A stretch of DNA of 64,000 bases, taken from IMG/VR virus record IMGVR_UViG_3300045609_000049; one strand, 5' to 3'. The stretch comes from an uncultured virus (IMG/VR IMGVR_UViG_3300045609_000049) (taxonomy: Duplodnaviria > Heunggongvirae > Uroviricota > Caudoviricetes). Positions within the stretch are counted from its first letter, which is position 1; each line of letters starts with the position of its first letter. Positions 17,557 to 63,665 of this stretch are shown here, in pieces. The notes under the pieces are model-generated. The model had not been told where the DNA came from and made no database searches. It saw only the letters and a program-made list of their open reading frames with translations. The position numbers and the translations under genes are program-made.

Positions 17557-18912
17557 ATGAATAGCAATCAGTTATTTAGACAAGTAGCTAGACGTACACT
17601 AACTACGAAATTTGTCCCTCGAGGCAGATTTCAAAAAGGACGATTACGACGTCTATTAAAACAAGCAAAAAAGAATAGTTCATTTTATAGGGAGTTATAT
17701 AAAGATATTGATCTTAGTCGGATAACTCCCTATAATATTGCAGAATTACCTGCAGTGACTAAGTCTCAACTTATTGAAAATTATGGTGATTGGGTATGTG
17801 ATACAGATATTCATAAAGAAGATGTTATTGAGTATGCATCAAATGTTCAAAATATTGGAAGATTATATCTAGACAAATACTATATAACATCAACATCAGG
17901 TTCTACTGGAGAAAAACTAAAAGTTATCAATGAACAGAACGACTTCATAGAAATGTTAGCAATGGGTGCAATAGATACATGGCCTAAACTATCATACGCT
18001 ATAGACGTTGCTAAAAGTCATCGACCAGTTGTGTATATTGCACCTACTGATGGATTTTACGCATCTGTTCTTGTAGCTAGAACTTACTTAAATTTGTCAG
18101 ATAATTTTAACTCAGAAATTATTGATTTTAGAGTTCCTACTGATGAATTAGTACTTAGACTTAACCAAATCAATCCTATACTGATTGGAGGATATGTTAG
18201 TACATTTTTGATTCTTGCAGATGAAGCTAAAGCTGGACGACTAAATATAAATGTAAAGTATATGGTACCAATCGGCACAGCATATTCTGAAGAAGACAGA
18301 CAAAGAGTTAAGGAAGCTTTTGATTGTGAAACATTTACATCCTATAGTTGTACAGAAGCTGGAGAGATTGGATGCGAATGTGTATACGGACATTTTCATC
18401 TCGCTAAAGGTGTAATCGTTGAACCTGTAGATGATAATCTAAATGTTATTGAAGATGGAAAAGAATCTAGTGGCGTTCTAATCACAAATTTGTGGAATAG
18501 ATCAATGCCATTTATTAGATATTTGCTCAATGATAGATGTATTGTGCATAATGAACAATGCAAATGTGGACGTAAAACAAAATGGATAGAAGTCATTGGA
18601 AGAGAAGTAATTCGAGTTTACTTCTTAAATGATGACAACAAAGTAATTCAGATGACTGACTTTATGTTTGAAGCAATTCTAAACGATATTTGTAGTGGTA
18701 AAGCAGATCATCAAATGATTATAGATGGTAATACAATTGAAATGAGATTTAATATAAAGAATGATTTTATAAAGTTTAGTCAGTTCAAATGTATTAGAAG
18801 CAGAATACAAGAATTGGCAAATGTAAATGATCTCAGTTTAGATGTAGTACTTAGTGATGAATTACCTATTGTAGATAATTCAGGTAAAACAAAGAGAATA
18901 ATCATAAGATAG
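17557..18912 (+). CDS. Phenylacetate-CoA ligase/CapK-like adenylate-forming enzyme
   Basis: STSGSTG, YSCTEAG, MPFIRYLLND, CKCGR, SGKTK. Confidence 0.82.
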   Translation: MNSNQLFRQVARRTLTTKFVPRGRFQKGRLRRLLKQAKKNSSFYRELYKDIDLSRITPYNIAELPAVTKSQLIENYGDWVCDTDIHKEDVIEYASNVQNIGRLYLDKYYITSTSGSTGEKLKVINEQNDFIEMLAMGAIDTWPKLSYAIDVAKSHRPVVYIAPTDGFYASVLVARTYLNLSDNFNSEIIDFRVPTDELVLRLNQINPILIGGYVSTFLILADEAKAGRLNINVKYMVPIGTAYSEEDRQRVKEAFDCETFTSYSCTEAGEIGCECVYGHFHLAKGVIVEPVDDNLNVIEDGKESSGVLITNLWNRSMPFIRYLLNDRCIVHNEQCKCGRKTKWIEVIGREVIRVYFLNDDNKVIQMTDFMFEAILNDICSGKADHQMIIDGNTIEMRFNIKNDFIKFSQFKCIRSRIQELANVNDLSLDVVLSDELPIVDNSGKTKRIIIR

Positions 18913-19062
18913 TTTACTCTACGTATGTAGAGGTTTTTCCATTGAAGCATCAATCAAGTCTGCAGAGGCAGCGTTTTCTCTACGTATGTAGAGGTTTTTC
19001 CGTCATAGAGTTGATGTCAATTTCTACAAACTTGTCTTCTCTACGTATGTAGAGGTTATTCC
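18912..19062 (+). CRISPR. Mini CRISPR array B (3 repeats, 2 spacers)
   Basis: 29-nt repeats at 18912, 18973, 19034; 32-nt spacers; 61-nt period. Confidence 0.9.
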
Positions 19063-21879: not shown

Positions 21880-22002
21880 ATGAGTACAGTAAAACAAGTA
21901 GATTTTACAGTCAAGCCTTTAAAGAAGACTGATCAATACTTTGGATTCTCTTTAGAAGATGATCCGATGCACATCATGCCTGACGGAACTATCTTCCATA
22001 AT
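21880..22002 (+). other. Split intein C-piece (41 aa, blocks F and G)
   Basis: DQYFGFSLEDD...DGTIFHN followed by Ser; own RBS and start. Confidence 0.85.
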
Positions 22003-25000
22003 TCTGGCAAGAGTGTTTGTGAGCAGAGCATAGTTGGCCACGTATCTAGATATTCAGATAGATTTCAGTTGGTAGGAGTCGACTGTAAGCGTATTTAATT
22101 CAATGCGCATTTCTATTGAACTCTATTGCTCAGAGGTGTGATTTAGATTTTATTCTAAATTGCTAACGGTATCAGCAAAATAAGCATAGTTGGTTGGGTG
22201 TTACAACAGTACCAACTTTAATAATGACGAAACAGCTGACTAAGAGAATCTAAGCCTAGAAATAGGTCAGTTAAAGACAATACCGTGCTAAGTCCGAAAG
22301 GAAAAGTGTATCGACTATCTCCGTGAGGAGAGTACATCCGAGAATGAGCTACGGGTGGAAGTGGTAGAAGTATAATTTTAAAGGAGTTTTTAATAATGAT
22401 TATTTGTAAAATTTGTGGAAAGGAATGTTCTGATAGAGGAATAGGCGCACATGTAAAAATCAGCATAGTATGATGCCTGTCCAATATTATGATACATATT
22501 ATGGTAAACATAAATGTCCAGTGTGTGGAAAAGATACAAATTTCAGAAGTATTCATCAAGGATATTTAGAATTTTGTAGCATTAAATGTGCAGATTTAGA
22601 ACGAAGTATATTTAAAACTAGAAATCCACAGAAAGACCCACAAATAAAGCAAAAAACACAGGAAACATGCATTAAAAGATATGGAGTATCTAATCCATAT
22701 CAAATAGAACATGTAAAAACTAAATGTATTGCAAATAATCATACAAAAGATGCTTTAGATAAACGTACAAAATCATTATATAAAAATCTTGAAAACTTTT
22801 GTAAAGCCAATAATTGTATTACTATGGGAGAAGCATTAAAAATAAATCCATGCATAGGTTGGTGGAGTGAAGTAGATTTTATTATCTATAAGAAATGGCG
22901 TAAATGTATATCTAAAGACGATTTAGACATTATTAAAAACTATAAGCCAAATAATAACCGAAGTAAAAATGAGATCAAATTATATAATCTTATTTGCGAT
23001 AATTTTAATGGTATAGTTGAACATTCAACTAGATCTGTAATAAATCCATTAGAATTAGACATCTACATTCCAGATCTTAAATTAGCAATTGAATATAATG
23101 GTTGTTATTATCATTCTATAGAAGCTGGAACACTTAAAGATTATCATCTTGAAAAATCATTAAGATGTAGAGATTTAGGAATTAGACTTATTCATATCTA
23201 TGACTTTGAAAATTTTGATACTCAATGTAAGTTAGTGTTAAAATTACTTCAGGGTACAGATGAATTTTGTAAAATAGACTTCAATAAAAATAATCTTATA
23301 GAAGTCGTTCCTAAACCTGAATTAATTTTTAGTGATTTGAATCTTCATGTTTATGGCGCTGGAAAATTATACAAGATATAGTCAGTTTATTATGGAAACA
23401 TAATAAGATAACGGTAGAATTTAATTTACTTAGAGGCGTAGATTTTGCGCATCTTTATTGAACCTTATTACTCAAGGGTGTCTTAGAAATAAGGCTAACG
23501 GTAGAAGTTGAATAAGACTGCTATATGAAATGTTACAACAAGATATATAGCCATAGACCAAAGACGAAGTCGCTTCGTAAGAGAACCTACGGTCCAGAAA
23601 TGGATAGCAGGCAATACCGTGCTAAGCTTATACTGTTTAAAGGTGCAATAAAACTTGATATAATAGTATTAGAAAGTGTATCGACTATTCCCGAGAGAGG
23701 GAAGTACAGCCGAGGATGAGTTACGGTTGGAAGTAGTAGAGGTATATAAAATGATTAAATGTAAAATATGTAATGCAGAATATAATACATATAAACAATT
23801 ATCTTGGCATGTCAAATATCATAATCTGACAAATCAACAATATTATGATATGTATATGAAACAGCCTAATGAGGGTTATTGTTTAATGTGTAGAAAAGTT
23901 ACTGCATTTATAAGTCTAAATTTAGGGTATAGACAACATTGTAATAAACAATGTACTAAGTTAGACAAACAAGTTCAAGTAAAAAGATTAAACACTAATA
24001 TTGATAGATATGGATATGCAACATCATTAAGTTCTAAAGAAACTCAAGATAAAATAAAACAAACATTTATTAGAAAATATGGAGTATCAAATCCTTATGC
24101 TGCAGAATCAGTAAAGGAAAAGATAAAACAAAATAATTTAGAACAGTACGGAGTAGAAAATCCACAACAACGTGATGATGTTAAACAGAAAACGGCAACA
24201 ACTAATTTAGAATTATATGGAAATACATGTGTAATGCAAAGTGAATCTGTAAAAAGTAAAGTAAGACAAACTATGCAAGAACGATATGGTTCTGATAACA
24301 TATTTGGTTCTGAATATGGAAAACAGAAAATTAAAGAAACTAACTTAGAACGTTATGGAGTTGAGAATCCTCAGCAGAATCATGATATTCACGTAAAAAC
24401 ACTGAAACATTATAAGTATAATTCATTAAATTTTGACAGTTCTTGGGAATTAGCAGTTTATATTTATTGTATAGACCATAATATATCAATTATTAGAGAA
24501 TCAGTACGATTCAAATATATCAATTCAAATGGTGTTGAAAGCTATTATTTTCCAGATTTTGAAATTGAAGGTCATATAGTTGAAATTAAAGGTGGACAAT
24601 TTTTAGACAAGAACAATAAGTTAAAAGATAAAGCAAAACAAAAATGTATAGATGAACATAATGTTGAATTATGGATTAAGTCAGATGTTCAGAAATATAT
24701 TCAGTATTGTGAAGAAAAGTTTGGTAGTACTAAATGGTATAATCAATTTAGATAATCATTTTATATATAAGATATAGTCAGTTCATTATTGAAAAATAGT
24801 GAGTAAATGAAAAGGTGTAAAAGGAGTAGCTTTAGATGTACCTACGGCCGCAGACGCCGTGGCAAATTTCCAACAGATTATGATGGAGAGATTTAAGTTC
24901 ATGGAGCAGATGCAGGTTGATTTTATAAAATTATTGGCTTGCGCGTAGAGTGATCTGCGTGAGAAATTAACTATTTAATTGCTGGGATAATATTCTTTTA

Positions 25001-28000
25001 ATGAATATGACTTTAACAACAATCAAGCTATAACATAATTGGAAACAATAAGTGTGAATTGCAACGAAAGTAGAAAAAATTGATTGTTTGACCTATGGTT
25101 AAATCCTAAGGGTTAGTAGAATGAGAAATCAGCAGCTAAGTACCCTAACGTTATACTGAGATCATCAGTTAGCTAAGTCGAGGGTAAAAGTTCAACGACT
25201 AGAGCTCACAGAGGCTACATCATAAAAATAAGAGTGGAAATCTCGAATATTTGTAGCAATACTCGTAGGGCCTATTATGGTGGGTGAGAATCCCTTAAAT
25301 CGAAAAGGTAGTCCCTTATTTATAAGGTGAAGATATAGTCTAAGGAGAGATCAGAATGAATGAAACAATATGTAGAATATGTAATCAACCAATTTCAAAT
25401 AGGTTGTTTAAGAAACATTTAGAACAACATAATATTAGTCAACAACCATATTATGATAGGTACTTTGGAAAAGGTGTATGTGAAGTATGTGGTAAACCTA
25501 CCAGCTTTAAGGATATTTTCAAAGGTTATAATAATTATTGTTCTAGATCATGCTTAAATAAATCTACTATACATTCTGATTCAGTTAAAACTACTAAAAC
25601 TATTAGGTATGGAACTCCTACATACAATAATCCAAGTAAGACAAGTGAATCTTTATTAAATAGAACAGATGATGAAAAACAAAAATCTATTCTTAAAAGA
25701 AAATCTACTTGTCAAGAAAAGTATGGAGATGAAACATATAATAATAGTAAAAAGTATAAAGAAACTTGTCTTAAGGTATATGGAACAGTGATTCCATTTG
25801 CTGCAGAATCAGTAAAGCAGAAAATTTCAGACAAATATTATGCTAAATCTGCTGAAGAAAAGAAAGCGATTTATACAAAGAGACAAGCAACATTTGATAG
25901 TAAAACTGAAGAAGAAATGAAAATTATTGGTCAGAAACATAGAGATGCATATATGTTGAAGTCAGATAAAGAAAAAGCTGAGATTAAACATAAAAGCTAT
26001 CTGACTAAAAAGAAGAATCATTCATTTAAGGTATCAAAGACTGAAGATTTATGTTATGTACAACTTTTAAGTATTTATCCAGATGCTAAACATGGATATA
26101 AGTCAACTAAATATCCTTTTGTATGTGATTTATACATTCCATCTAAAGATATTTATATTGAGCTTAACTTTCATTGGACACATGGATTACATCCATACAA
26201 TAAGAAAAATGATAGTAAAAAGTTAGCAGAGTGGATAGAAAAATCTAAAACATCTAAGTATTTTGAAAATGCTATTTATACTTGGACAGTTAGAGATACA
26301 CACAAGTTAAAAGTAGCTAAACATAATAAAGTACAATTATTTGTATTTTATACTAAATCTGAGTTTGATACTTGGTTATCTATGCAATAATGTTTATAAA
26401 ATCAAAGACAAGGAAGTAAATTATTTTACCACAATGGGCAAAACTGTTCAGTTTGATGAAATCTTTGAGCTTATGGTAGACCTTGACGAAAATGATAGAA
26501 ACTATAGTAAAATGAAGGCCATCTATCCTGAAGGACGTCAGCCTATTATTACGACTATTCAAAAGATTTATGATGGTATGATGGAAGGTAAGTGGGATGG
26601 TAGAAATCCTCAGTTACCTGAAGTAAAAGGTTACAACTCATATATCGACAAGAATAGTATTAGAATGACGAAGGGCATTTATACTCCTAAAGTATTACTC
26701 TTCCTTGCAGATGAGTTGAATGAGTTGATGACATCAGACGATTATAAGTCAGTTGATATTGTTAAACAAGCACTGGGATCTATAGCTAGACTCGGTAGAG
26801 CTTATTTGTTGTAGGCTCGGTATATAAAATTATAAGATATAAGGTAAATAAAATGTTAAATGAATTGCAATGTAAGATTTGTGGATATAAAGCATCTACA
26901 AAACAAGGTTTTAATAGTCATTTATCACATAGACATCATATAAAATCAAAAGATTATTATGATAATTATCTTAAACAAGATGGTGAAGGAATATGTCATT
27001 GTGGTAATCCAACAAAATTTAGAAATATGTGGTATGGCTATAACAGACATTGTTGTACTAGATGTATTCCATTAGATCCAGACGTACAAAATAAAATGAA
27101 AATTACTTGTCAAGAAAAATATGGCACAGATTATGCTTGGCAAGCAGAACAAACAAAAGCTAAGATTAAACAAACTACTAGAAATCATTATGGAGTAGAT
27201 TGTTATTTACACACAGATGCATGTAGAAAAATTACATCTGAAGTTACTAGTTCTGATAAAGTTAAAGATAAGATTAAACAATCTAATTTAAAACGTTATG
27301 GAGTAGAATGTTCATTTCAAGCCTCAGTAGTTAAAGATAAGATTAAGTGTACTAAATTAGATAGATATGGCCATGAAACTTATAATAACTTAGATAAAGC
27401 AAAAGAAACTAGTAGAGCTAAATATGGAGTAGATAATCCTGCTCAATCTATAAAAGTACAAAATAAAATGAAAGCTACATGTTTGGAACGTTATGGTGTT
27501 GATAATATCTGGAAAGATAGAGATTCTAGATTAAAAGCTAAAAAGAAGTCACAAAAATCTATGTGTAAACATGGAAATAGATCTTCCTTAGAAGCTTTAT
27601 TAGAGCAATATTTTATTGATAATCATATTAAATATGAACCAGAATATAATAAAGATATTCGTTATCCATATTTTTGTGATTTTTATTTACCAGATTTTGA
27701 TTTATTTATTGAAATAAATGGATATTACACACACTGTAATCATTGGTTTGATTCAAATAATTCAGAAGATGTTAATAAGTTAAACGAACTTATTGAAAAG
27801 TCTAAAGTTCATTCAATGTACAAAACTTGTATAAGAGTTTGGACTCAATCTGATGTAGAGAAACGAAATTGTGCCAAAAATAATAAACTTAATTATGTTG
27901 TATTATGGTCTAAACAAGATATTCTTGATTGGATTAATTCTGGATTTGAAATTAGACATGATTATTAAATTTATCTTATAATAATATATATAAAAATTAA

Positions 28001-31000
28001 CCTATTGAATTGCTGGAACAGTACATTAGTACGTACCTAAAGTTCTTTCAGCTACAACGTAGAGATGAAATATGCTCAAGCGTGATATGCGGAGAAATCA
28101 GAAAAAATGAAAGAAATGGCCTATGGTTAAATCCTAAGGGTTATAAGAATGGAAAATCAGCAGCTAAGCCTCGAATAGAGGAAAGTTCAGAGACTATCGA
28201 AAGCATAGTATAAGAGAAATACTTATATGAAGAAGTGAGTAGAGTAGCTTTATAAGCGAAGTGGTAGGCATTTCATATTGGCTAATGCAATATGGGATGA
28301 AGATATAGTCCAACTTTTATATGAAAGTATAAAATATAGTGGCAGCAGTACATCTTGCTCTTGCTTAACTAAAAATACGGAGTTTTATTAATGAAATGTT
28401 TAATTTGTGAACATGAAAGTCCAATATATTTGTAGAAATTAACGGTTATTGGATGTATAATACACATTGGTTTGATGAAAATTCTATAGAAGATTTAAAC
28501 GCATTAAAAGAGTGGAAAAAGAAAGCTAAAACTTCTACAAGAATGCAATCAGCTATAAATATTTGGACAAAAATTGATATAGAAAAACGTAATTGTGCCA
28601 AAAGTAATAAGTTAAATTACGTAGTTCTATGGACAATAGAAGATATTCAGAATTGGATAGATTCTAATTTCAAAATTAGACATGATTATTAAAAAACATA
28701 ATATTTAGACAGGCACTATATACAAGTAATTGTGTGTAGTTATCCCATTGAATTGCTGGAAACTCTTTAGAGCTTCTTAAACTACAGCATAGTACCTTAA
28801 ATGGTACAGGTGCGAATGTTTGAAAATTAAGAAGATTAGACAATCAGCAGCTAAGGCCGAAAGGTAAAGTTCAACGACTATCGAAAGTATAATTATAGAG
28901 AAATACTATAATGAATAAATGAGTAGAGTAGCAGAAATGCGAAGTGGTGGGCATCTTATAAAGGTTAATACAATATAAGATGAAGATATAGTCTAATAGT
29001 ACAATTGTACTAGTGTCAGAGAGCAAGTGGTTCTACTATTTCAACAGACTTGAAGAACAATATTCAGATGAGTGTTCTTTTAGGTGGATTTGATGATGGT
29101 GCATCACAGTTAATGTTTGAAAAGGATTAACAATGAATAGTCCCTATGTACAGAAATGTGCATAGCAAACCAATTTAATTGCTGGAAATTTAATTCCTAG
29201 AGAATTACGTAGAAATACGCTAAAGCCTTCTCGCCACAGCATAAGCATGAAATATAGTTAAGTGCGACGGTAGTGAAAACAGAAAGAAGTAAGAAGGATT
29301 GTATAAGGTTAAATCCTAAGTACAACAAAATGGATAACCAGCAGCCAAGTTCCGAATAGGAAAAGGTTCAACGACTATCGAAAGCTACAGGTCTTGAAAC
29401 ACAGATGAAAATAAGATGACTATTTAATTATATAGTCATACGAAGTGAGTAGAGTAGTGCCGAGTGGTGAGCATCTATATGAGATTAGTATAGAGTAAGT
29501 CTATTAAAACGAAATGGTTGGTATTATTTTAGATTAAAAATATAATAGAAAGGAGACTTACATGAAATGTTTAGAATGTGGACAAGATATTAAAAATAAT
29601 ATTGCATTAGGTTTACATGTTAAAAAACATAATATGACTAGTAAAGAGTATTATGATAAATATATGCGAAAATCTAATGAAGGCATTTGTCCTACTTGTA
29701 AGAAAGAAACTCCTTGGCAATCGTTTGATAGAGGGTATCTTAAACATTGTTCATATAAATGTACTCAAAATGATCCTAAAGTAATTAAAAAACGTGAAGA
29801 TCATTTTATGAGTAAATATGGTGTTAAGAATCCATATCAAGCAGAAGAAGTAAAACAAAAAATAAAAGAAAGTAATTTAGCTAATTATAGTGTTGAATAT
29901 AATTTACAGAGAAAAGAAACTATTCAACAGGCAAAACAAACTAAATTAGAACGTTATGGAGATCAAAATTATAATAATACAACAAAAGCTAAGACAACTT
30001 GTTTAGATAAATATGGAGTAGATTCATATTCAAAAACTGATAAATTTAAGTCTATTATTAGAGAACAAGTAGATTTTTATGCAATTGCTAAAAAAGGATT
30101 AGTAACACATAATAGTAAAGTAGATAAACAATGTAAGTTGGGATATATAACTATACAAGATGCTTTTATTAAGTACGGTCAAAGCTGGTATAAAAATAAG
30201 ATAGTTCCAATTTTATATAAATATCATACTGGATTTATTTCTCTAGCTGATGAACAGATTATAAAATTTTATTATGAAAATAATAATGGTCATAGTAGTC
30301 AAGAAGAAAATAAGCTATTAGAATTATTGCATAAGTATTATTCTGGAACTATAATTCATGGTGAACATAAAATAATTGCACCTTTAGAATTAGACTGTTA
30401 TATTCCTGAGTTAAACATAGCTATAGAATATAATGGTATTTATTGGCATTCTGCTAAATTTAAGAATAATGACTATCATTATAATAAATCTATGTCTTGT
30501 TTTAATAAAGGCATTAGACTTATTCACTTTTATGAATTTGAAGACTGGACATATATAGAACAGTTTATTAAAGATTTATTTAATAACACTGAGCAAATTA
30601 CACATAATTTTGATAAATTTTCTCCATTACAATTTGATTATTCTACAATTGAATTTTCAGGTCCGCAATTGTTAGAATGTAATATATTTGGATCTGGAAC
30701 ATTTAATCTAAAATAATAATGATATAGTCTACTCTCATGTGAAAGCATGAGGCGAAAGCATAATAGAGTAACGAACTATTATAAATGTAAGGATTTCTCA
30801 GTTGGCTAAACCTCAGATCAAGGGAAGAGGTTTTATCGGATTAACAATCTAGTCCGGGCGTACAGTGATGTGCGTAAAAATTATCCTATTTAATTGCTGG
30901 AAAACTGATTCCAAGAGAATCACGCAGAAATGTGCCTAAGAGCTCTTCAAACTACAGCATAATACCTGTAAAATGGTATAAGTGTGACAGTTACGAAAGT

Positions 31001-32647
31001 AGAAAAAATTGAAGAGATTGTATATGGTTAAATCCTAAGTACAATAAAATGGGTAATCTTAGCAGCGAAGACCGAAAGGTAACGTTCAACGACTATCGAA
31101 AGCTACAGGTCTTGAAACACAGATGAAAATAAGGTCATAATGACACGAAGTGAGTAGAGTAGTGCCAAGTGGTTAGCGTCTATATGAGATTAGTATAGAG
31201 TAAGTCTATTAAAACGAAATGGTAGGTATCATAACAATTTTCTGGTAAAAATAAAATGGAAGGCGAATAATAATTGAAATGTTTAATATTCAGCCTGACT
31301 TAATACTCAAGTGTTTTCTCTACGTGTGTAGAGGTTATTCCCTAAAGCTCACAATCCACAATGTAAGCATGAAGTTTTCTCTACATATGTAGAGGTTATT
31401 CTAATTTTGGTCCTATACCAGAAGGTCCAGAAATTATTTGTACTAAACCATATAGTATATATGGTGCAGGAAAATTGTTATGATAATGATATAGTCTCCT
31501 CTCATATGAAAGTATGAGGCGAAGGCATAATAGACTAACGAACTATTATAAAGATAAGGCAGGAAATGAAATTATCGAAACTCAAACTTATTACACACAA
31601 CCAGAGAATTAACAATCCAGTGGTTCTCTATAAACCTATTTAATTGCTGGAACAGTATCAAATAATGATACGGACCTAAAGCTCACAATCCACAACGTAA
31701 GGATGAAATAAGCCTAAGCGTGACGGGCGCGAAAGCAGAAAAAAGAACGTTATGTTCAAGTGAGATGGCCTAAGGACGATTTGGTGAGTCCTAAGGGTTG
31801 TAAGAATGGGAAATCAGCAGCCAAGCCTCGAATAGAGGACGGTTCAACGACTATCAAAAGCTACAGGCCTTGTAATACAGGATGAAAATAAGATGACTAT
31901 TATAATAGTTATACGAAGTGAGTAGAGTAGCGCCAGAGTGGTTAGTATCTAAGTGAGATTAGCTTAGAGTAAATCTATTAAAGCGAAATGGTAGGTGCTA
32001 TAGAAATATAGTGAAGATATAGTCTAGATTCTTATGAAAGTAAGGAAGGTTATGTATTTAACCAAAAAACGGACTGGGAGTTTGATGAAGACCAGAAATT
32101 GTCTTATAATAACCCTGTATTTATTGAGTTATTAAAGAGACGCGGTAAAAGCTTTGACGAGCTAAATACTGGTTGGGTACCTCAGCATAAGATTGGTGAG
32201 GAAGCAGAAGAACCAGATGAAGAAATTGAAGAAAAAGAGGATGAGTTTGAAGAAGATGAAGATGTAAATGAAGAAGATCTTTTTACATCTGCACCTAAAA
32301 TGGAAGCTCCACCTAAGAAAGAAGAAGATTCTAATGAAGTAAGCTTTAAGTTCGGTAGAAAATCTAAACCAGAAGAACCTGTTGCACCAGCATCAGTAGA
32401 ATCACCAGATTTAGGATTAAGTGGACTAGAAGCCATGTTTGGACCATCTACTTCAACTATTCCCGAACCACCTACACCATCTCAACCTAATTTTGGACAA
32501 CCGTCTAATAGAGATCGAATTGGTGCGGCTTTGAATGAAGTTCAAGGTGGAAAACCTAAAATTAAGTTAAATATTGACAAGACTTCTGCAGATCAACCGA
32601 TGAAGCCTACAATTAAACTCAATATTAAGCCTAAGGATCAACAGTAA
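21880..32647 (+). CDS. FtsK/SpoIIIE-like ATPase 1, C-half with N-terminal intein C-piece; exons 21880-22092, 23414-23439, 24810-24917, 26385-26802, 28342-28365, 29014-29127, 30793-30841, 31560-31609, 32072-32647
   Basis: Exons sum to 1578 nt (525 aa plus stop): IFHN-SGKS, VDCKRVEF, Walker B LLFLADELNELM, RLGRAAAVHLALACQRAS, KGRG, acidic/Pro-rich tail. Confidence 0.85.
22093..23413 (+). mobile_element. Group I intron with endonuclease ORF
   Basis: P1 gcgt/gcgc; gctaacggt...ataccgtgctaag, tcgacta, gatatagtc; terminal G. Confidence 0.82.
22396..23381 (+). pseudogene. Intron-encoded zinc-finger/PD-(D/E)XK endonuclease with 1-nt frameshift near 22455
   Basis: MIICKICGK start with RBS is out of frame with the 22470-23381 ORF (ELDIYIPDLKLAIEYNG); one extra A in gtaaaaatcag restores HVKNQH. 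Confidence 0.7.
23440..24809 (+). mobile_element. Group I intron with endonuclease ORF
   Basis: P1 gcgt/gcgc; same core family as the 22093 intron; terminal G; frame restored. Confidence 0.82.
23751..24755 (+). CDS. Intron-encoded endonuclease (zinc finger, YGVxNP repeats, PD-(D/E)XK)
   Basis: FDSSWE...YFPDF...VEIKG. Confidence 0.8.
   Translation: MIKCKICNAEYNTYKQLSWHVKYHNLTNQQYYDMYMKQPNEGYCLMCRKVTAFISLNLGYRQHCNKQCTKLDKQVQVKRLNTNIDRYGYATSLSSKETQDKIKQTFIRKYGVSNPYAAESVKEKIKQNNLEQYGVENPQQRDDVKQKTATTNLELYGNTCVMQSESVKSKVRQTMQERYGSDNIFGSEYGKQKIKETNLERYGVENPQQNHDIHVKTLKHYKYNSLNFDSSWELAVYIYCIDHNISIIRESVRFKYINSNGVESYYFPDFEIEGHIVEIKGGQFLDKNNKLKDKAKQKCIDEHNVELWIKSDVQKYIQYCEEKFGSTKWYNQFR
24918..26384 (+). 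mobile_element. Group I intron with endonuclease ORF after P7
   Basis: P1 gcaggt/gcttgc; P10 ttttataaaattattg pairs with exon caataatgtttataaaa; standard core motifs. Confidence 0.82.
25356..26390 (+). CDS. Intron-encoded endonuclease
   Basis: Zinc fingers; YPFVCDLYIP...IELNFHWTHG. Confidence 0.8.
   Translation: MNETICRICNQPISNRLFKKHLEQHNISQQPYYDRYFGKGVCEVCGKPTSFKDIFKGYNNYCSRSCLNKSTIHSDSVKTTKTIRYGTPTYNNPSKTSESLLNRTDDEKQKSILKRKSTCQEKYGDETYNNSKKYKETCLKVYGTVIPFAAESVKQKISDKYYAKSAEEKKAIYTKRQATFDSKTEEEMKIIGQKHRDAYMLKSDKEKAEIKHKSYLTKKKNHSFKVSKTEDLCYVQLLSIYPDAKHGYKSTKYPFVCDLYIPSKDIYIELNFHWTHGLHPYNKKNDSKKLAEWIEKSKTSKYFENAIYTWTVRDTHKLKVAKHNKVQLFVFYTKSEFDTWLSMQ
26803..28341 (+). mobile_element. Group I intron with endonuclease ORF ahead of the core
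   Basis: P1 gagct/ggctc; P10 tatttgttgt pairs with gcagcagta; core at about 28000-28320. Confidence 0.82.
26853..27968 (+). CDS. Intron-encoded endonuclease
   Basis: Zinc fingers, YGV repeats, YPYFCDFYLP...IEINGYYTH. Confidence 0.8.
   Translation: MLNELQCKICGYKASTKQGFNSHLSHRHHIKSKDYYDNYLKQDGEGICHCGNPTKFRNMWYGYNRHCCTRCIPLDPDVQNKMKITCQEKYGTDYAWQAEQTKAKIKQTTRNHYGVDCYLHTDACRKITSEVTSSDKVKDKIKQSNLKRYGVECSFQASVVKDKIKCTKLDRYGHETYNNLDKAKETSRAKYGVDNPAQSIKVQNKMKATCLERYGVDNIWKDRDSRLKAKKKSQKSMCKHGNRSSLEALLEQYFIDNHIKYEPEYNKDIRYPYFCDFYLPDFDLFIEINGYYTHCNHWFDSNNSEDVNKLNELIEKSKVHSMYKTCIRVWTQSDVEKRNCAKNNKLNYVVLWSKQDILDWINSGFEIRHDY
28366..29013 (+). mobile_element. Group I intron with deleted endonuclease remnant in the P1 loop
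   Basis: Guide gacaggca near 28708; core motifs; terminal G29013; frame restored (LALA-CQR). Confidence 0.8.
28391..28692 (+). pseudogene. Internally deleted endonuclease
   Basis: MKCLICEH start joined out of frame to FVEINGYW...KIRHDY, which is paralogous to the 26853 ORF C-terminus. Confidence 0.75.
29128..30792 (+). mobile_element. Group I intron with endonuclease ORF
   Basis: P1 ggat/gtcc; core motifs; terminal G. Confidence 0.8.
29562..30716 (+). CDS. Intron-encoded endonuclease
   Basis: MKCLECG zinc finger; ELDCYIPELNIAIEYNGIYWH. Confidence 0.82.
   Translation: MKCLECGQDIKNNIALGLHVKKHNMTSKEYYDKYMRKSNEGICPTCKKETPWQSFDRGYLKHCSYKCTQNDPKVIKKREDHFMSKYGVKNPYQAEEVKQKIKESNLANYSVEYNLQRKETIQQAKQTKLERYGDQNYNNTTKAKTTCLDKYGVDSYSKTDKFKSIIREQVDFYAIAKKGLVTHNSKVDKQCKLGYITIQDAFIKYGQSWYKNKIVPILYKYHTGFISLADEQIIKFYYENNNGHSSQEENKLLELLHKYYSGTIIHGEHKIIAPLELDCYIPELNIAIEYNGIYWHSAKFKNNDYHYNKSMSCFNKGIRLIHFYEFEDWTYIEQFIKDLFNNTEQITHNFDKFSPLQFDYSTIEFSGPQLLECNIFGSGTFNLK
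30842..31559 (+). mobile_element. Group I intron carrying a mini CRISPR array in place of its endonuclease
   Basis: P1 cggat/gtccg; core motifs; terminal G; frame restored (FIG-SGNE). Confidence 0.8.
31313..31402 (+). CRISPR. Mini CRISPR array C (2 repeats, 1 spacer) inside an intron
   Basis: Repeats 31313-31341 and 31374-31402; 32-nt spacer. Confidence 0.85.
31610..32071 (+). mobile_element. Group I intron, no ORF
   Basis: P1 gagaat/gttctc; P10 ccagt/actgg; core motifs; terminal G. Confidence 0.85.
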
Positions 32648-33929: not shown

Positions 33930-33941
33930 CAAGAAGGGTGT

Positions 33942-34032
33942 GTTTACTCTACGTATGTAGAGGTTATTCCTTACAATTTGTCAAGCACAACCTATTAAAC
34001 TTGTTTTTCTCTACGCATGTAGAGGTTATTCC
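33942..34032 (+). CRISPR. Mini CRISPR array D (2 repeats, 1 spacer)
   Basis: Repeats at 33942 and 34003; spacer 33971-34002; promoter motif upstream and hairpin downstream. Confidence 0.85.
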
Positions 34033-34087
34033 ATTTAAGGAGGTCTCTTAGTTTTTAAGAGACCTCTAACTATAACAGGAGGTAATT

Positions 34088-39204: not shown

Positions 39205-39585
39205 ATGAAGAAAACTATTGCAGATGTAAAGGTAGGAGATTTAGTTCTTGGTACCGATGGTAAATTCCATAAAGTTATTGAAAAGACTACAGCTAAACTC
39301 TCCTACCACATGTATGAAATAGAATTTAGCAATGGTAAAGTCAAATGTTCTAATGTACATCAATGGAATGTATTTATCAAAAACAAGATGTATATGATTG
39401 ACGCTGAAGGTATTTATCAAGAATTTGATTGGTACAAGGGTCGACATGTTGGAACTAACGATGGACCAACGATTGTTAATATTAGAAAAATTGAACCTGA
39501 AATTGTGCAGTGTATAACTACTGACGCACCTGACCATCAGTTTGCTATTTATACTGAAGGTGGCGCTGTTTGTAACGATAACTAA
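39205..39585 (+). CDS. Stand-alone intein middle piece (class-3-like; blocks B and F, no block A, no HN end)
   Basis: TIADVKVGDLVLGTDG, MYEIEFSNG, HQW, IVQCITTDAPDHQF. Confidence 0.8.
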   Translation: MKKTIADVKVGDLVLGTDGKFHKVIEKTTAKLSYHMYEIEFSNGKVKCSNVHQWNVFIKNKMYMIDAEGIYQEFDWYKGRHVGTNDGPTIVNIRKIEPEIVQCITTDAPDHQFAIYTEGGAVCNDN

Positions 39586-42043: not shown

Positions 42044-42103
42044 AGCAGGTAGCTTTGGTCTAGCTAACCAAAGAGATAATGATGCCTTAATCATTAAGCT
42101 GCT
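42044..42103 (+). ncRNA. Candidate structured RNA, copy 1
   Basis: Three stems with compensatory changes relative to the copy at 43910-43968. Confidence 0.55.
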
Positions 42104-42132
42104 TTATTTTATTTCTATTAAGGAGAAATATC

Positions 42133-43008
42133 ATGAAATGTCGTATATGTGGAAAAGAAATGGAAAAAGGTCATAGTTGGAAACATCATTTATCGTCCCA
42201 ACAATATTATGATCAGTATATTAAAACTGAAACTGATGGTATATGTAAAGTATGTAAAAGTCCTACTTCTTGGCATAAACAAAAATTTTGTTATGACGAG
42301 TATTGTAAAGACCATCAACCTAAAAAGATTCATAGTTTATACAATAATAGAGATAAAGCTATTGCCACATGTAAAGAAAAATTTGATGGTAAATTAAATT
42401 CTGGTGCATGGAATACTAGAAATCAAAGATTAGATCAATTTGAAAAGGATCATAATTGTACAAGAACTAAAAAGTTAATTCAGCAATATGGTCAAGGTTG
42501 GTTAGCCTTAAACTTGCCTAGAATATATTGTGGTAAACAAAATACGTTTATTAGTAATGACTATTTACATCAAATTGTAGAATATTCTACACATAAACAT
42601 GTAAATCTAAAAGGTAAAGCTGAGTCATATATACTTGAACATTTACAATATGATGGACAAATTCAGCCTAACAATCGTAAAATCATTCATCCAAAAGAAT
42701 TAGATATTTATATTCCTGATCTAAAGCTTGCTATAGAATTTAATGGTACTTATTGGCATGCAGAAGAACGTCAAAATAATATTTATATTCATAGAGAAAA
42801 ATCTATATTATGTCATGAAAAAGGAATTAGACTAATTCATATATTTGAATTTGAAGATTTAGACGAACAAATTGACAAAATAAATCAGTTAATTTTAGGA
42901 AATGACTTATTTGAACAAACATTTACTAAGAATAGTCTGTTAGACGTTCCTAAGTTAGATCCTATTATTATATATAAAGACGAAAAGAGCACATTATATA
43001 GTGCTTAA
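42133..43008 (+). CDS. Free-standing zinc-finger/PD-(D/E)XK endonuclease
   Basis: MKCRICG; ELDIYIPDLKLAIEFNGTYWH; RLIHIFEFE. Confidence 0.82.
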   Translation: MKCRICGKEMEKGHSWKHHLSSQQYYDQYIKTETDGICKVCKSPTSWHKQKFCYDEYCKDHQPKKIHSLYNNRDKAIATCKEKFDGKLNSGAWNTRNQRLDQFEKDHNCTRTKKLIQQYGQGWLALNLPRIYCGKQNTFISNDYLHQIVEYSTHKHVNLKGKAESYILEHLQYDGQIQPNNRKIIHPKELDIYIPDLKLAIEFNGTYWHAEERQNNIYIHREKSILCHEKGIRLIHIFEFEDLDEQIDKINQLILGNDLFEQTFTKNSLLDVPKLDPIIIYKDEKSTLYSA

Positions 43009-43058
43009 TGACTTCTAATATAGAAAATCTATGTCATGGAAAGGAGTTGATGATTACA

Positions 43059-43904
43059 ATGGAGACAGTTAAAAGAGGACTCATTTCGCACAACAGCGTT
43101 ACTTTGAGGAATGTCATATTCCATTGTATTTAGGCGAAAGCCTAAAATAAATCGAACATAATAATAAAATATCGGTCGCGTTGGTAGACATAAAGCAAAC
43201 GGAGTGCGTTTTTAAAGGATGAAGCTCCCGCGTATGGTGACATGCGTGAAAAATTCCCTATTGAATTGCTGGAACAGTATTCTTATAATGAATACGAACC
43301 TAATGCCAAATTAGCTACAACGTAAGAGAAATACTAAGCGTGATATGCAGCGAAAGCAGAAAAAATAATTTGGATGACCTATGGTTAAATCCTAAGGGTT
43401 AGTAGAATGGAAAATCAGCCGCCAAGTCTTGGTAACAGAGACAGGTTCAACGACTATCGAAAGCTATAGGACCTGAAATACGGTATGAAAATAAGGCATT
43501 TGCACGAAGTAAGTAGAGTAGAGCCAATATGGTTAGCATTTAGATGAGATTAGTCTAATATAAGTCTATTAAATCGAAGTGGTAGGGTTCTCTAATTAGA
43601 GAATATGATATAGTCTAATAATGTTTATCCTTTTAAGGGTATGAATGGTGTAGTAGCAGTTGCAAACTCGGTTCAAGAAGCAGCTGAGGTTTTGAGAATT
43701 GGTAGAGCCGTAATGTATTCTCGTAACAAGAAGCTTCAACAAATTGGATTAAATGATATGGCTTCCTATCAGCCGACTTTGTGGACTGGTAAGATTTGGA
43801 TTACTGGTCGTGAGTTTGATAAGGATGAGATGATCAAAGTTCGTGTTGCTGGCGAGGAAAAAGAAATGACAGCACTCGAAATTTACGAGTATTTGTACAA
43901 CTAA
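43059..43904 (+). CDS. FtsK-like ATPase 2, middle fragment with a 12-aa intein C-piece; segments 43059-43130, 43154-43205, 43624-43904
   Basis: METVKRGLISHN-SVTLRNVIFHCI/EHNNKISVALVDIKQTE/FYPFKGMNGVVAVA aligns without gaps to ATPase 1 SVCEQSIVGHV...VDCKRVEFNLLRGVKGVKGVA. Confidence 0.7.
43206..43623 (+). mobile_element. Group I intron, no ORF
   Basis: P1 ggagt/gctcc; P10 taaaggatgaa pairs with tttatcctttt; core motifs; terminal G. Confidence 0.85.
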
Positions 43905-43909
43905 TATAT

Positions 43910-43968
43910 TGTGGGTAGCGTTAGTCTAGCTAACTAACGAGATAATGTTGCTTACTCAACAAGCCACA
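43910..43968 (+). ncRNA. Candidate structured RNA, copy 2
   Basis: Same unpaired sequences as 42044-42103 with different but paired stems. Confidence 0.55.
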
Positions 43969-43998
43969 TTATATTTTTTCTTAGTAGGGAGAAATATT

Positions 43999-45972
43999 AT
44001 GGTTAAATGTTTAGAATGTGGTCGAGAATTTAATAGTAATAATGGTTTATCTCGACATATAGGCGTTCATATGAATCAAGAAGAATATTTTGATAAATAC
44101 TTACGAACATCCGAACAAGAAGGAAAATGTGTTATATGTGGAAAACCTACTAGATTTAGAAATTTTGTATATTCTAATTGCTGTAGCCAGTCCTGTAGAA
44201 ATACGTGGATAAATCAAAATAGGTCTGAGGAAGAAAGACAAGAATTGTCTAAAAAGATACGTAATGCCCATAGAACTGAAGACGTTTTATCTAAGACTAA
44301 ACAAACTAATATAGAAAGATATGGAGTTCTTTATACAACTCAAAATTCAGATGTTCAAGAGAAACGCAGACAAACTTGTCAAGAAAAATATGGTACAGAC
44401 TATTCATTTCAAGCTGAATGTGTAAAAGAAAAGATTCAGCAGTCTATACACGAACATTATGGTGAGAACGGTCTTGGAGCAGCAGAAGTTAGACATAAAA
44501 CTATTGCTACATGCCAAGAACGATATGGCACCAATAATGGCGGTGCTTCACAACAAGCACAAGAGAAAATTAAAAAAACTACTTTAGAACATTATGGGGT
44601 AGAATCGTCTTTTCAAGCCAATGAAGTAAAAGATAAAATTAAGAAAACTTGTCAAGAAAAATATAGTGTAGATTATGCTAGTCAAGCAGAAGTAGTTAAA
44701 ACAAAAATTGTTAAAACAACATTAGATAGATATGGAGTTAGATGTCAATATCAACGTTCAGACTTGCGAGCAAAACTATCCGATCCAGGCGTTATTGCTA
44801 AAAAATATGAAACTAAACGTAAGAATGGAACGTTTAACACCTCTAAACCAGAAGACAGATGCTATGAATTACTTCAATCAATCTTTCCAAATGCTAAAAG
44901 ACCATATAAGTCTGAACAATATCCATATCTATGTGATTTTTATGTACCAGAACTAGATTTATACATAGAGTGTCATTTTTTCTGGACACATGGTGGACAC
45001 TTTTTCGATAAAAATAATCCTGAAGATCTGGCTATTGTAGAAGAATGGAAATCTAAACACGCAAATTTTTATGATAATGCTATTCGAAATTGGGCTGTTA
45101 GAGACTTAGAAAAGCTTGAATGTGCTCATAGAAATAATCTTAAATATTTAGTATGTTGGTCAGAAGAAGAGTTTATGTCTATATTTGATAGAGACTTTTC
45201 TGAACATGATGAGCTTTCAGATAAAATTAAGAATGTAACTCAAGTGACTAAACTTGCTAATTGGAATGAGTACTTTAAGCGTGAAATTGAAATGCTTGAT
45301 AATCCATTAGTATTAGGTGAGTTATTTATCAATAGATATAAGTATTTAGGCAAGTTACCACATCAACTGTCTAATCTTGCCTTATTGAATGGACTTAGTA
45401 TTTCTGGTAAACTTCGAAAGTACAGTACATTTGATAATACTGGCATGATTCAGTTTATTGAAAAATATAAACCTTCTACTATATTTGACCCTTGTGCCGG
45501 TTGGGGCGAAAGACTTCTAACTTGTCATGTCAATGGAATTAAATATATAGGCCACGATATAAATCAAACTGTTGTAGAAGGTCAAAATGAACTAATTAAA
45601 AAATACAATATAGACGCAAAAGTCACTTGTATGGATTCTATTATGGATATGAGTCATTATGATTGTTTATTCACTTGTCCACCTTATTGGAATACAGAGG
45701 TTTATACTAGTATAGGCGTAGAAAATCTTGAGTATGACAAGTTTTTGCAGTGGTGGAAAAGTATTATTGAAAACTCATCTAGTAATTTTGTAGCCTATCA
45801 AATCAATCAAAAATATAAAGACGACATGAACCAACAAATTTTAGATTTAGGATATAGATTTACAGAAGAAATCATTTTGCCACAAAAGAGCTCTCATTTC
45901 ACTAGAAAAGCTGGAAATCAAAAACGAGAATTTGAGAGTATTCAAGTGTTTAGTAAACTAACTCAAGCTTAA
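43999..45972 (+). CDS. Zinc-finger/PD-(D/E)XK endonuclease fused to an amino-DNA methyltransferase-like domain
   Basis: YPYLCDFYVP...IECHFFWTHG, then FDPCAGWG (motif I) and FTCPPYW (motif IV). Confidence 0.78.
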   Translation: MVKCLECGREFNSNNGLSRHIGVHMNQEEYFDKYLRTSEQEGKCVICGKPTRFRNFVYSNCCSQSCRNTWINQNRSEEERQELSKKIRNAHRTEDVLSKTKQTNIERYGVLYTTQNSDVQEKRRQTCQEKYGTDYSFQAECVKEKIQQSIHEHYGENGLGAAEVRHKTIATCQERYGTNNGGASQQAQEKIKKTTLEHYGVESSFQANEVKDKIKKTCQEKYSVDYASQAEVVKTKIVKTTLDRYGVRCQYQRSDLRAKLSDPGVIAKKYETKRKNGTFNTSKPEDRCYELLQSIFPNAKRPYKSEQYPYLCDFYVPELDLYIECHFFWTHGGHFFDKNNPEDLAIVEEWKSKHANFYDNAIRNWAVRDLEKLECAHRNNLKYLVCWSEEEFMSIFDRDFSEHDELSDKIKNVTQVTKLANWNEYFKREIEMLDNPLVLGELFINRYKYLGKLPHQLSNLALLNGLSISGKLRKYSTFDNTGMIQFIEKYKPSTIFDPCAGWGERLLTCHVNGIKYIGHDINQTVVEGQNELIKKYNIDAKVTCMDSIMDMSHYDCLFTCPPYWNTEVYTSIGVENLEYDKFLQWWKSIIENSSSNFVAYQINQKYKDDMNQQILDLGYRFTEEIILPQKSSHFTRKAGNQKREFESIQVFSKLTQA

Positions 45973-61866: not shown

Positions 61867-62112
61867 TTTTAGGAGGCGATAATCGTGTTTGATTATAATA
61901 AAGTAGATTGGCACAAGAATGGTGGTAAAGCTAAGCTTGACTTCTTTTCTTGTGACTTTAACGTAGAAGATAATTGCAATATTGTAACTTTCCATATTGT
62001 AGCATTTAATTGCAATGGTACAGATCTAAATTGCGCCGCAGACGATATTTTTAAAGCAAACGAAGTAGAAATCCACTAAGTCTTTAGCTTAGTGGATGAA
62101 TACGAGGTAATT

Positions 62113-62511
62113 ATGTCAAATTATAAAAGTAAAAATCATAGTAAATTTACTCTAAAATATCATATTATATTTGTTTGTAAATATCGTAAGAAATTATTAA
62201 TTAAATATGGAGAAGAAATAAAACAAATTATAAAAGATATTTCATATAAATATGATTTTGATATTTTAGAAATTGAAGTAGATAAAGACCATATTCATAT
62301 TTTAGTTGATAGTGAACCTAAATTATCTCCGTTAATGATAGTGAGAGTTCTTAAGCAACAATCAACTATAATTCTGTATGGCAGGCATCATACAGAATTA
62401 AAAAGACACTTCTGGAAAGAAAATACCTTTTGGACGGACGGATATTTTTGTTCAACAATAGGCGAAGTTAGTAGTAAAACTTTAGAAAAATATATTCAAA
62501 ATCAAGGATAA
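62113..62511 (+). CDS. tnpA: IS200/IS605 Y1 transposase
   Basis: YHIIFVCKYR, DHIH (HUH), FWTDGY, YIQNQ. Confidence 0.95.
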   Translation: MSNYKSKNHSKFTLKYHIIFVCKYRKKLLIKYGEEIKQIIKDISYKYDFDILEIEVDKDHIHILVDSEPKLSPLMIVRVLKQQSTIILYGRHHTELKRHFWKENTFWTDGYFCSTIGEVSSKTLEKYIQNQG

Positions 62512-62573
62512 ATACTTGACAAAAATTAATTAAAATGTGTTATAATAAATATAGAAAGAGAGGTGAATTAGAA

Positions 62574-63665
62574 ATGGCAAACAAGGCTTATAAATTCAGA
62601 TTATATCCTAATAATGAGCAAGAAATTCTTTTCAATAAAACTTTTGGATGTGTTAGATTTATTTTTAATAAAATGCTTGGTGATAAAATTGAGTATTATA
62701 AAGAAACAAAAGAGAAGTTAAATAATACACCTGCACAGTACAAAAAAGAATTTGAATGGCTTAAAGAAGTTGATAGTTTGGCTCTTGCAAATGCTCAACT
62801 GAATTTACAAACAGCTTATAATAATTTCTTCAGAAACACAAAAGCTGGTTTCCCTAAATTTAAGTCAAAGAAAAGAAATAAGTTTTCGTACACAACAAAT
62901 AATCAGAATGGGACTGTTGCTATCGTTGAAGGAAAGTTAAAACTTCCTAAGGTCGGACTGGTAAAAATGAAACAGCACAGGATTATTCCATCTGACCAAA
63001 AGATAAAATCGGCAACCATTTCAAAAACACCCTCTGGAAAATATTATGTTTCTGTTCTCGTTGAATATGAACAATACATACCAAATATTCAGCTTGATAA
63101 AGATAAAGTATTAGGATTAGATTACGCAAGTCATAGTTTCTATGTCGATAGTCAAGGCAGAGAAGCTGATTACCCACGTTTCTATCGTAATGCTCAAAAC
63201 AAACTTGCAAAAGAACAACGTAAACTTTCACTTATGAAATACGGCAGTAACAACTATTATAAGCAAAAAGTGGTTGTTGCAAAAATTCACGAGCATATAG
63301 CAAATCAACGCAAAGACTTCATTCATAAATTAAGCACCCAGCTTGCTAATGAATATGATTATATTTGCGTTGAGGATATAAATATGCAGGGCATGGCACA
63401 GTCACTCAAACTTGGTAAATCAACAAATGATAATGGGTTTGGAATGTTTAGAACAATTATTGGTTACAAACTTTTTGACAGAGGAAAACAGTTGATTAAG
63501 ATTGACAAATGGTTTCCATCAAGTAAAATGTGTAGGCATTGTGGAGCAATAAATAAAGATTTGACACTTGCTGACAGAGTTTGGACTTGTGAATGTGGTG
63601 CAGTTATCAATCGTGATGAAAATGCAGCTATAAATATAATGAATGTCGGACTAAGCACGGTCTGA
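62574..63665 (+). CDS. tnpB: RNA-guided endonuclease TnpB
   Basis: AYKFRLYP, GLD, VEDI, SSKMCRHCG, CECG, RDENAA. Confidence 0.95.
   Translation: MANKAYKFRLYPNNEQEILFNKTFGCVRFIFNKMLGDKIEYYKETKEKLNNTPAQYKKEFEWLKEVDSLALANAQLNLQTAYNNFFRNTKAGFPKFKSKKRNKFSYTTNNQNGTVAIVEGKLKLPKVGLVKMKQHRIIPSDQKIKSATISKTPSGKYYVSVLVEYEQYIPNIQLDKDKVLGLDYASHSFYVDSQGREADYPRFYRNAQNKLAKEQRKLSLMKYGSNNYYKQKVVVAKIHEHIANQRKDFIHKLSTQLANEYDYICVEDINMQGMAQSLKLGKSTNDNGFGMFRTIIGYKLFDRGKQLIKIDKWFPSSKMCRHCGAINKDLTLADRVWTCECGAVINRDENAAINIMNVGLSTV

Follow-up and report, generated by a model that had tools for sequence, protein, structure and literature searches.

A 23-nt coding gap, probably bypassed by ribosomes, in a split ATPase gene of an uncultured phage

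An insert of 23 nt interrupts a split ATPase gene in the DNA of an uncultured phage, and comparison with homologous sequences suggests that it is probably a translationally bypassed coding gap, similar to that of T4 gene 60 but part of a separate system in which serial hops and natural 6-nt stop hops would occur. It lies in a stretch of 64,000 nt, the whole of which is called the window here, and an earlier note written from the letters of this stretch had proposed such a hop. Bypassing is supported as the best explanation of the insert, the homologs providing far stronger evidence than the single sequence could.

The gapped gene and its setting

The window is AT-rich and mostly one-stranded, and both group I introns and ORFs for endonucleases are numerous. 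The four phage genomes most closely related to it measure 290-467 kb and have 34-55 tRNA matches. A relative was found on a contig of a Bacilli MAG, and homologous proteins also bear the label Bacilli MAG, a weak hint of a Bacilli host. No match was found among cultured phage records, and L005 (32% identity, E 1e-4), tried as a further relative, was discarded as unrelated.

By sequence similarity, the gapped gene is the middle piece of an FtsK/SpoIIIE-like ATPase (ATPase 2): the homolog P0005 matches PF01580 (E 4.5e-9) and aligns to FtsK structures over the stretch after the P-loop. All features described below lie on the plus strand. A Shine-Dalgarno sequence and start codon are found at 43040..43061 (ATG at 43059, with another in-frame ATG at 43050), and the layout is identical in the relatives. 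The first 12 codons (43059..43094) form a split-intein C-piece that ends in His-Asn and is followed by Ser+1. In the unsplit homologs the Walker A motif GGGK abuts the equivalent Ser, while the N-terminal ATPase gene of the four relatives ends in GGGK plus 10-15 additional residues. The first 12 extein codons (43095..43130), which according to PF01580 and the FtsK structures encode the helix after the P-loop, precede the gap. Downstream of it follow the resumed coding sequence (43154..43205), a group I intron of 418 nt (43206..43623) and the last exon of the middle piece (43624..43904; 78-90% identity to the four phage relatives and 80-82% to unsplit proteins). The intron begins 52 nt 3' of the gap, has P, Q, R and S motifs at 43264, 43413, 43446 and 43607, and its position is continuous in the intronless relative L002. 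Circle joints of this intron occur in RNA runs X6 and X16 (43623>43210) and X18 (43622>43218), while an Rfam search at E<=1 did not list it.

ATPase 2 is made in at least four pieces, the further ones sitting elsewhere in the relatives, and the middle piece is present in a single copy per related genome. A free-standing Hint ORF (39205..39585) is a candidate for the middle part of a three-part split intein at this junction and presumably pairs with the C-piece at 43059..43094. Its match to class-3-type DnaB inteins (E 7e-8) begins at residue 16 of the latter, and it is conserved in the relatives; class-3-type inteins are marked by a W/C signature. A complex prediction of the three intein pieces gave a score of 0.01, which counts neither for nor against their pairing, and the intein C-terminal HMM was too insensitive for C-pieces this short. 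Apparent natural three-part split inteins, in which the upstream genes have N tails of 10-16 residues, the middle part is a free-standing Hint ORF and the C piece is short, were seen in the window (39205-39585 and 8431-8922), in L017 and L022-L024 (N pieces), and in L055 and L056; we found no such natural case in the literature searched. With three junctions but only two strong Hint ORFs detected per genome, one of these ORFs may serve two junctions. The N-terminal ATPase 2 gene also contains a cis intein-like insert in L023 (4979-6298), L022, L024 and L017, which has Pro at its start and Gln/Asn-Thr at its end and lies four residues 5' of the split junction. The third ATPase piece likewise ends in a Pro-led tail.

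The 23-nt gap in the window

The layout described earlier, in which CAT TGT ATT TAG is followed 23 nt further on by ATC GAA, was borne out by a coordinate check, and the insert comprises ATT, TAG, a 7-bp GAAA hairpin and ATC. The putative take-off codon ATT (Ile, 43128..43130) is the last sense codon 5' of the stop. The UAG (43131..43133) would occupy the A site at take-off. A 7-bp hairpin with a GNRA (GAAA) loop is predicted at 43129..43146 by RNAfold, its 5' arm including the stop and the final TT of ATT. This structure, already proposed around the Ile codon and stop, recurs in both the MFE and the centroid fold, the stability of the 91-nt region as a whole being not unusual (z = -1.25). No intrinsic terminator was found at the hairpin. 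The candidate landing codon ATC (Ile, 43151..43153) is the earliest in-gap triplet fully cognate for tRNA-Ile(GAU) and is followed by the resume codon GAA (43154-43156). A possible 6-bp 5' stem-loop, of putative role, is predicted at 43108..43122, 5 nt upstream of the take-off codon; it is found in seven of the 12 long site-C alleles tested (site C being the site of the window), the others being without it.

No frame is open across the gap, as stops interrupt the 0 frame (43131, 43143), the resume frame (43148) and the +1 frame (43159). Hence neither readthrough nor a simple frameshift can join the two halves, and the -1 route in particular is closed by the TAA (43148..43150) that abuts the landing codon in the resume frame. 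The ungapped match of 43 residues between the joined product and ATPase 1, pointed out in the earlier note, holds after removal of the introns of both genes (13 identities; none of 10,000 shuffles attained its BLOSUM62 score of 63). Among 466 ordinary ORF ends taken as a chance control, a synonymous codon within 40 nt of the stop was common (358/466), while a 7-bp hairpin over the stop was rare (8/466), as was its combination with a synonymous codon (5/466). A matched codon is therefore weak evidence by itself, and the case rests on the homologs.

The need to skip 23 nt is plain, and we infer the take-off, sliding and landing as follows. The ribosome would translate 24 codons and then pause, its peptidyl-tRNA-Ile(GAU) wobble-paired (G:U) to AUU while UAG fills the A site. 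Starting in the take-off codon, the hairpin would fold while the mRNA leaves or enters the A site, and the anticodon would release. The ribosome would then slide 23 nt, re-pair on AUC with full Watson-Crick pairing and continue at GAA. Ribosomes that do not hop would release a 24-residue peptide. The group I intron would be spliced out of the mRNA, and the intein C-piece would link the product to the N-terminal ATPase piece made elsewhere.

Gaps in related genes

The gap of the window is one member of a family located shortly downstream of a split-intein C-piece. Thirty rows, at least four of which are re-deposits of the same genome, were aligned to the homolog, 26 being split-intein alleles and four unsplit. 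All 26 split-intein rows, fetched as DNA, have one to three gaps, whereas the four unsplit rows have none; L078 is a 27th split allele with a gap. The gaps fall at four sites within 25 codons, namely after Leu4, Arg5, Ile12 or Ile25. The site of the window carries a gap in 17 rows, with lengths of 5, 9, 21, 23, 24, 29 and 38 nt; 14 of these rows have the same stem, and the take-off codon is ATT in 16 and GTA in one. The C-terminal ATPase piece, which also lies behind an intein C-fragment, has gaps in three of the four genomes, giving five gap sites in two genes in total.

Across these sites we distinguished 29 gaps of 5-38 nt, which occur in every frame (17/4/8, that is 17 in frame and 12 frame-shifting). 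The alleles overall are gap-free or have gaps of 5, 6, 9, 10, 11, 15, 17, 18, 21, 23, 24, 29 or 38 nt, with matched, wobble or mismatched landings, with or without a hairpin, and single or serial. The opening triplet is TAG in 27 of the 29, the remaining two being ATA and the rare CCG (1.8 per 1000). Compared with the codon before the gap, the landing triplet is identical in 12 gaps, synonymous in nine and a near match in eight (five with a true mismatch at position 1 or 2), while triplets inside the gaps are synonymous in only 6 of 269. Mismatches are concentrated at codon position 3 (15, against six at position 1 and two at position 2), and the near-matched Ile landings all end in C (5/5), a Watson-Crick pair with G34. 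In 22 of the 29 gaps no equal or better triplet lies 5' of the landing. This pattern follows the rules of tRNA re-pairing, and we hold bypassing to be probable. The matched codon could nevertheless be partly a by-product of insertion with duplication.

In the long site-C gaps a 6-bp stem is invariant in 11 of 11 aligned alleles, with three different loops, and hence gives no covariation. In three site-A alleles a hairpin has the take-off codon within its 5' arm and the stop within its loop; two compensatory changes were noted in these hairpins (by eye). A stable hairpin is often absent from gaps of 5-11 nt, and 5' stem-loops were not significantly enriched at any gap site (p = 0.09-1.0). A mini-SD before the landing codon is absent; in the window the stretch 5-7 nt upstream is all A/T.

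A comparison with homologs lacking the insert, as suggested earlier, shows that the gap-free alleles read C-I-E-H with one Ile. The unsplit homologs run from Walker A into S-V-T-L-R through C-I-E-H, and the gap-free, single-Ile form was found in six unsplit proteins and in 12 of the 14 intein-C-bearing proteins among the 120 listed. Some gap-free split alleles sit on contigs of more than 300 kb. In a comparison with 20 gap-bearing loci, pN/pS was 0.11 upstream of the gap and 0.10 downstream of it; the last exon had a value of 0.23, four rows with truncated or chimeric ends raising pN there. The codons flanking the gap are thus under purifying selection.

The 29 gaps share ancestry, and the counts are therefore not independent trials; perhaps 8-10 origins are represented. 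Independent gains were not counted from the exon-3 tree (four of 17 branches starred, six of 26 rows left out) because it is poorly resolved. Gaps were found only in the two ATPase pieces in a comparison of about 110-140 kb per genome with filtered ORFs. The 18-nt hairpin pattern had seven viral matches, one at this site, five intergenic and one within an open frame. A homology-free scan for a start, short ORF, stop, matched codon and long frame returned 31 rows, only three of which are real gaps (in two genes), and overlooked that of the window because of the intron; hence the pattern alone is not diagnostic.

tRNAs and stop-codon usage

Genes for tRNA-Ile(GAU), Arg ACG and Val UAC are present in all four related genomes, and G004, which has an ATT-to-ATA gap, additionally possesses tRNA-Ile(UAU). 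TAG terminates 11 of the 48 long ORFs in the window, and opening TAG raises the coding cover only slightly, from 0.705 to 0.725 there and from 0.706 to 0.707 in G004. No tRNA with a CUA anticodon was found in the tRNA clusters fetched, nor did we find the genome-wide in-frame TAGs that a reassignment of TAG to Gln implies; TAG is a working stop in these phages. No release-factor gene was found in the four related genomes. One tRNA with a UUA (ochre) anticodon occurs in G001 (L069:10279-10350), and tmRNA genes were seen in G001, G002 and G003 (L069, L071 and L074); the phage tmRNA could clear ribosomes that fail to land.

Alternative explanations

Removal of the gaps from the RNA is unlikely, though it ranks first among the alternatives. 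The gaps would then be micro-introns excised by a trans-acting group I ribozyme or a nuclease-ligase pair, and maybe relics of collapsed introns, an origin that had been considered earlier. Group I ribozymes can excise in trans, and the window is full of group I introns. The TAG that opens nearly all gaps might serve as a 5' signal, a 14/16 match to the gap hairpin is found near an intron 3' end at 30748, and a cut between codon positions 2 and 3 would restore the right codon, near matches included (by inspection). However, the splice-site rule for group I introns (a U preceding the cut and a terminal G) fails in the window, contrary to a collapsed intron, and gives the right peptide in only four of the 28 gaps tested. 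The gaps have no common 3' end, shrink to 5 nt and lack TAG in two cases; a full intron occurs at the gap sites in none of the 30 rows; and both the third-position drift of the landing codons and the C-ending near matches obey tRNA pairing rules. Run X6, in which intron circles are present, keeps the gap intact at depth 65 (contigs) with no joint that skips it, which argues weakly against excision; the exon-exon joint of the adjacent 418-nt intron was likewise not seen in the RNA contigs. Runs X15, X16 and X18 do not cover the gap, the match of X18 contig 15 ending at 43133.

We give slightly less credence to an unprogrammed leak, that is spontaneous low-level hopping or UAG readthrough of short in-frame gaps with an incidental hairpin. 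It would suit the 17 in-frame gaps, those of 6-9 nt containing one stop, and it can point to the ochre-anticodon tRNA of G001, to a TAG aligned to Gln in the sigma-factor gene of G002, and to eight database proteins with Gln plus 1-5 residues at the gap sites (P0014, P0018, P0176, P0178, P0182, P0184, P0197 and P0199). In all eight, though, Gln comes first and no other first residue occurs, 54 proteins have normal spacing, and two of the insert-bearing proteins are letter-for-letter equal to the fetched TAG alleles L058 and L059; most simply, the Gln-led inserts would reflect a gene caller reading TAG as Gln. Moreover, a leak is impossible for the window, with stops in all frames, and for the 12 frame-shifting gaps, it conflicts with TAG being a working stop and with the lack of a CUA-anticodon tRNA in the clusters fetched, and up to three serial gaps would cut its product to near zero.

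It is very unlikely that the stop is real and that the downstream part is re-initiated as a separate protein which assembles non-covalently, even though the ATPase is already made in several pieces and an in-frame ATG exists at 43641. The 17 codons from the gap to the intron are as conserved as stated above (pN/pS 0.10) and yet lie 5' of this ATG, the landing triplets ATC, CTT, AGT, GTC, ACC and CAC are not shared starts and have no SD ahead, and the break shifts among four sites of one helix-strand unit. Least credible of all are a decaying gene inactivated by the insertion and a faulty assembly, to which the existence of gap-free alleles and of isolated nonsense codons in some other genes might be thought to point. 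The former is contradicted by purifying selection on both sides and by the different gaps that recur in relatives, at five sites of two genes with a single copy per related genome. As for the latter, contig 22 of run X6, from the independent study P6, spans 42900-43239 with 0 differences, and the same stem occurs at this site in 14 of the 26 split-intein rows, the window counted. Most likely, then, on the comparative sequence evidence, ribosomes hop these gaps, a very rare mode of reading genes.

The upstream endonuclease

The ORF that adjoins the gapped gene upstream (42133..43008) is a putative free-standing homing endonuclease, which matches PHROG 3339 (E 3e-28) and has a Vsr-like C-terminal motif (by eye); no Pfam match was found for it. 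The ORFs preceding L051 and L052 share 80-82% identity with it. Of the 22 gap-bearing loci, 13 have an endonuclease-like ORF immediately upstream; no such ORF was seen in the stretch examined at the other nine. Gaps might arise and persist by breaking the DNA sites that homing endonucleases cut beside the intein insertion point, leaving the protein unchanged, as the gap breaks the endonuclease site in T4 MobA / gene 60 according to the available parts of the sources (10.1101/2022.08.31.505936; PMC7026636). Such a protective role suits the location of the gaps and the upstream ORFs of the 13 loci, but is weakly supported overall. The type of gap does not track the type of endonuclease: L051/L052 have the endonuclease of the window but different gaps, and L001 has the gap of the window but a different upstream ORF; the existence of gap-free split alleles also speaks against protection.

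A repeated structured leader with an 87% identical core occurs at 42048-42135 and 43914-44001 of the window, preceding two nuclease-like ORFs, and the relatives have it too. The ORF at 43945-45972 (675 aa) is a fusion of zinc finger, DUF7487, nuclease-like and DNA methylase-like parts.

Comparison with known systems

To our knowledge, natural bypassing is known only from T4 gene 60 and its homologs, from the byps of yeast mitochondria and from a Streptomyces phage candidate. We found no description of the present gaps in the main text of mostly openly readable papers, and bypassing is not mentioned in the accessible part of a recent jumbo-phage paper. The comparisons below likewise refer to the parts of the sources available to us.

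The 50-nt bypass of gene 60 and its MobA-element homologs have been described by Manning and Atkins (bioRxiv 10.1101/2022.08.31.505936). As there, the take-off codon lies on the 5' side of a stem-loop with a UAG or rare sense codon adjacent, the loop is of GNRA type as in some clades (a likeness by layout), landing would use the same tRNA after an AU-rich stretch without a premature landing triplet, and the gap interrupts the downstream piece of a split gene close to its beginning, with a homing endonuclease ahead of that piece. In contrast, the gene here encodes an FtsK-like ATPase rather than a topoisomerase, the codons are for Ile, Leu, Arg and Val instead of Gly/Asp, the gaps measure 5-38 nt against about 20-50 nt in the gene 60 family, and their five sites, spread over two genes, compare with a single position (+/-1 codon) in that family. 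Furthermore, there are up to three serial gaps, near-matched landings and no mini-SD, the nascent peptide would have 24 residues (fewer at sites A and B) compared with 46, and the gaps follow a split-intein C-piece. The marks of the T4 gene 60/MobA insertion (topoisomerase II large subunit, Gly46/Asp45, CTE and NTE) were not found here. Because gene, codons and lengths differ and the mini-SD is lacking, the gap does not belong to the gene 60 family; if bypassed as we suppose, it works like gene 60, yet it is neither a member of that family nor a byp.

The byps of Magnusiomyces capitatus mitochondria (Lang et al. 2014, as described in PMC5009743 and by Manning and Atkins) share several inserts per gene, hairpins and relaxed two-of-three matches between take-off and landing. 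They measure 27-55 nt, use an unused sense codon, and occur in 12 of 15 genes with relaxed mitochondrial ribosomes, whereas our gaps occur in two pieces of one ATPase (in the 110-140 kb compared), at a working stop and with bacterial ribosomes. Synthetic stop hops were reported by Weiss et al. 1987 (per PMC5009743), and a 2016 review states that natural hopping over in-frame stops is not known (PMC5009743). The terminase of Streptomyces phage phiHau3 likewise has short inserts (7-10 nt), two per gene, in a conserved phage ATPase, and its junction peptide has been demonstrated by MS in E. coli (PMC10732093). Its trigger is, however, the rare UUA, with a proposed role as a regulatory sensor, whereas UAG without any sign of regulation is found here. 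Fractured genes (Dassa et al. 2009; PMC2677866) have the split intein, the free-standing Vsr-like endonuclease before the C-piece and the hairpin leader on the endonuclease gene in common with our case. Coding gaps are not reported in the available text of that paper ('frameshift' has 0 matches), while the pieces here are dispersed and the intein is apparently three-part.

We lean, with considerable reserve, towards a broader reading in which these jumbo phages have evolved bypassing over and over again, gaining stop-led gaps of 5-38 nt many times immediately downstream of split-intein junctions. Ordinary bacterial ribosomes would then hop as often as three times within 25 codons, make natural stop hops of 6 nt and land on codons that match at two of three bases, and they would do so with neither the long nascent-peptide signal nor the mini-SD known from gene 60. 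If this is true, efficient bypassing would be easy to evolve and common in phages, or else aided by a phage factor, and databases would conceal it under truncated genes or TAG=Gln calls. Coding gaps may lie behind some of the TAG=Gln annotations and 'pseudogenes' that phage databases contain. As one gene supplies a natural allelic series, the minimal signals for hopping become directly testable, as does the existence of in-frame stop hopping in nature.

Additional observations

The isolated in-frame stops of other genes (window 38760; L010:15348; L011:11227 and 19635) are TGA or TAG for Trp and TAG for Gln; the genes are open in relatives, and the stops are probably nonsense alleles. ATPase 1 (window 21880-32300) is interrupted by many group I introns, some apparently nested, and its exons are down to 26 nt long (23414-23439). 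In the intron at 22093 the 5' end looks like a degenerate copy of the next exon, and an apparent stop at about 22095, tried as a further gap, is the start of this group I intron. An IS200/IS605-type element with TnpA- and TnpB-like ORFs (by eye) is present at 62080-63662. Dispersed CRISPR-like mini-arrays, with a 29-nt repeat at 61-62 nt spacing, were seen in the window at about 13410, 15300, 18910-19060, 31311-31405, 33940-34035 and 47050. One of their spacers (31341-31373), located within a nested intron, matches a further group I intron (31675-31707) with 94% identity over 33 nt.
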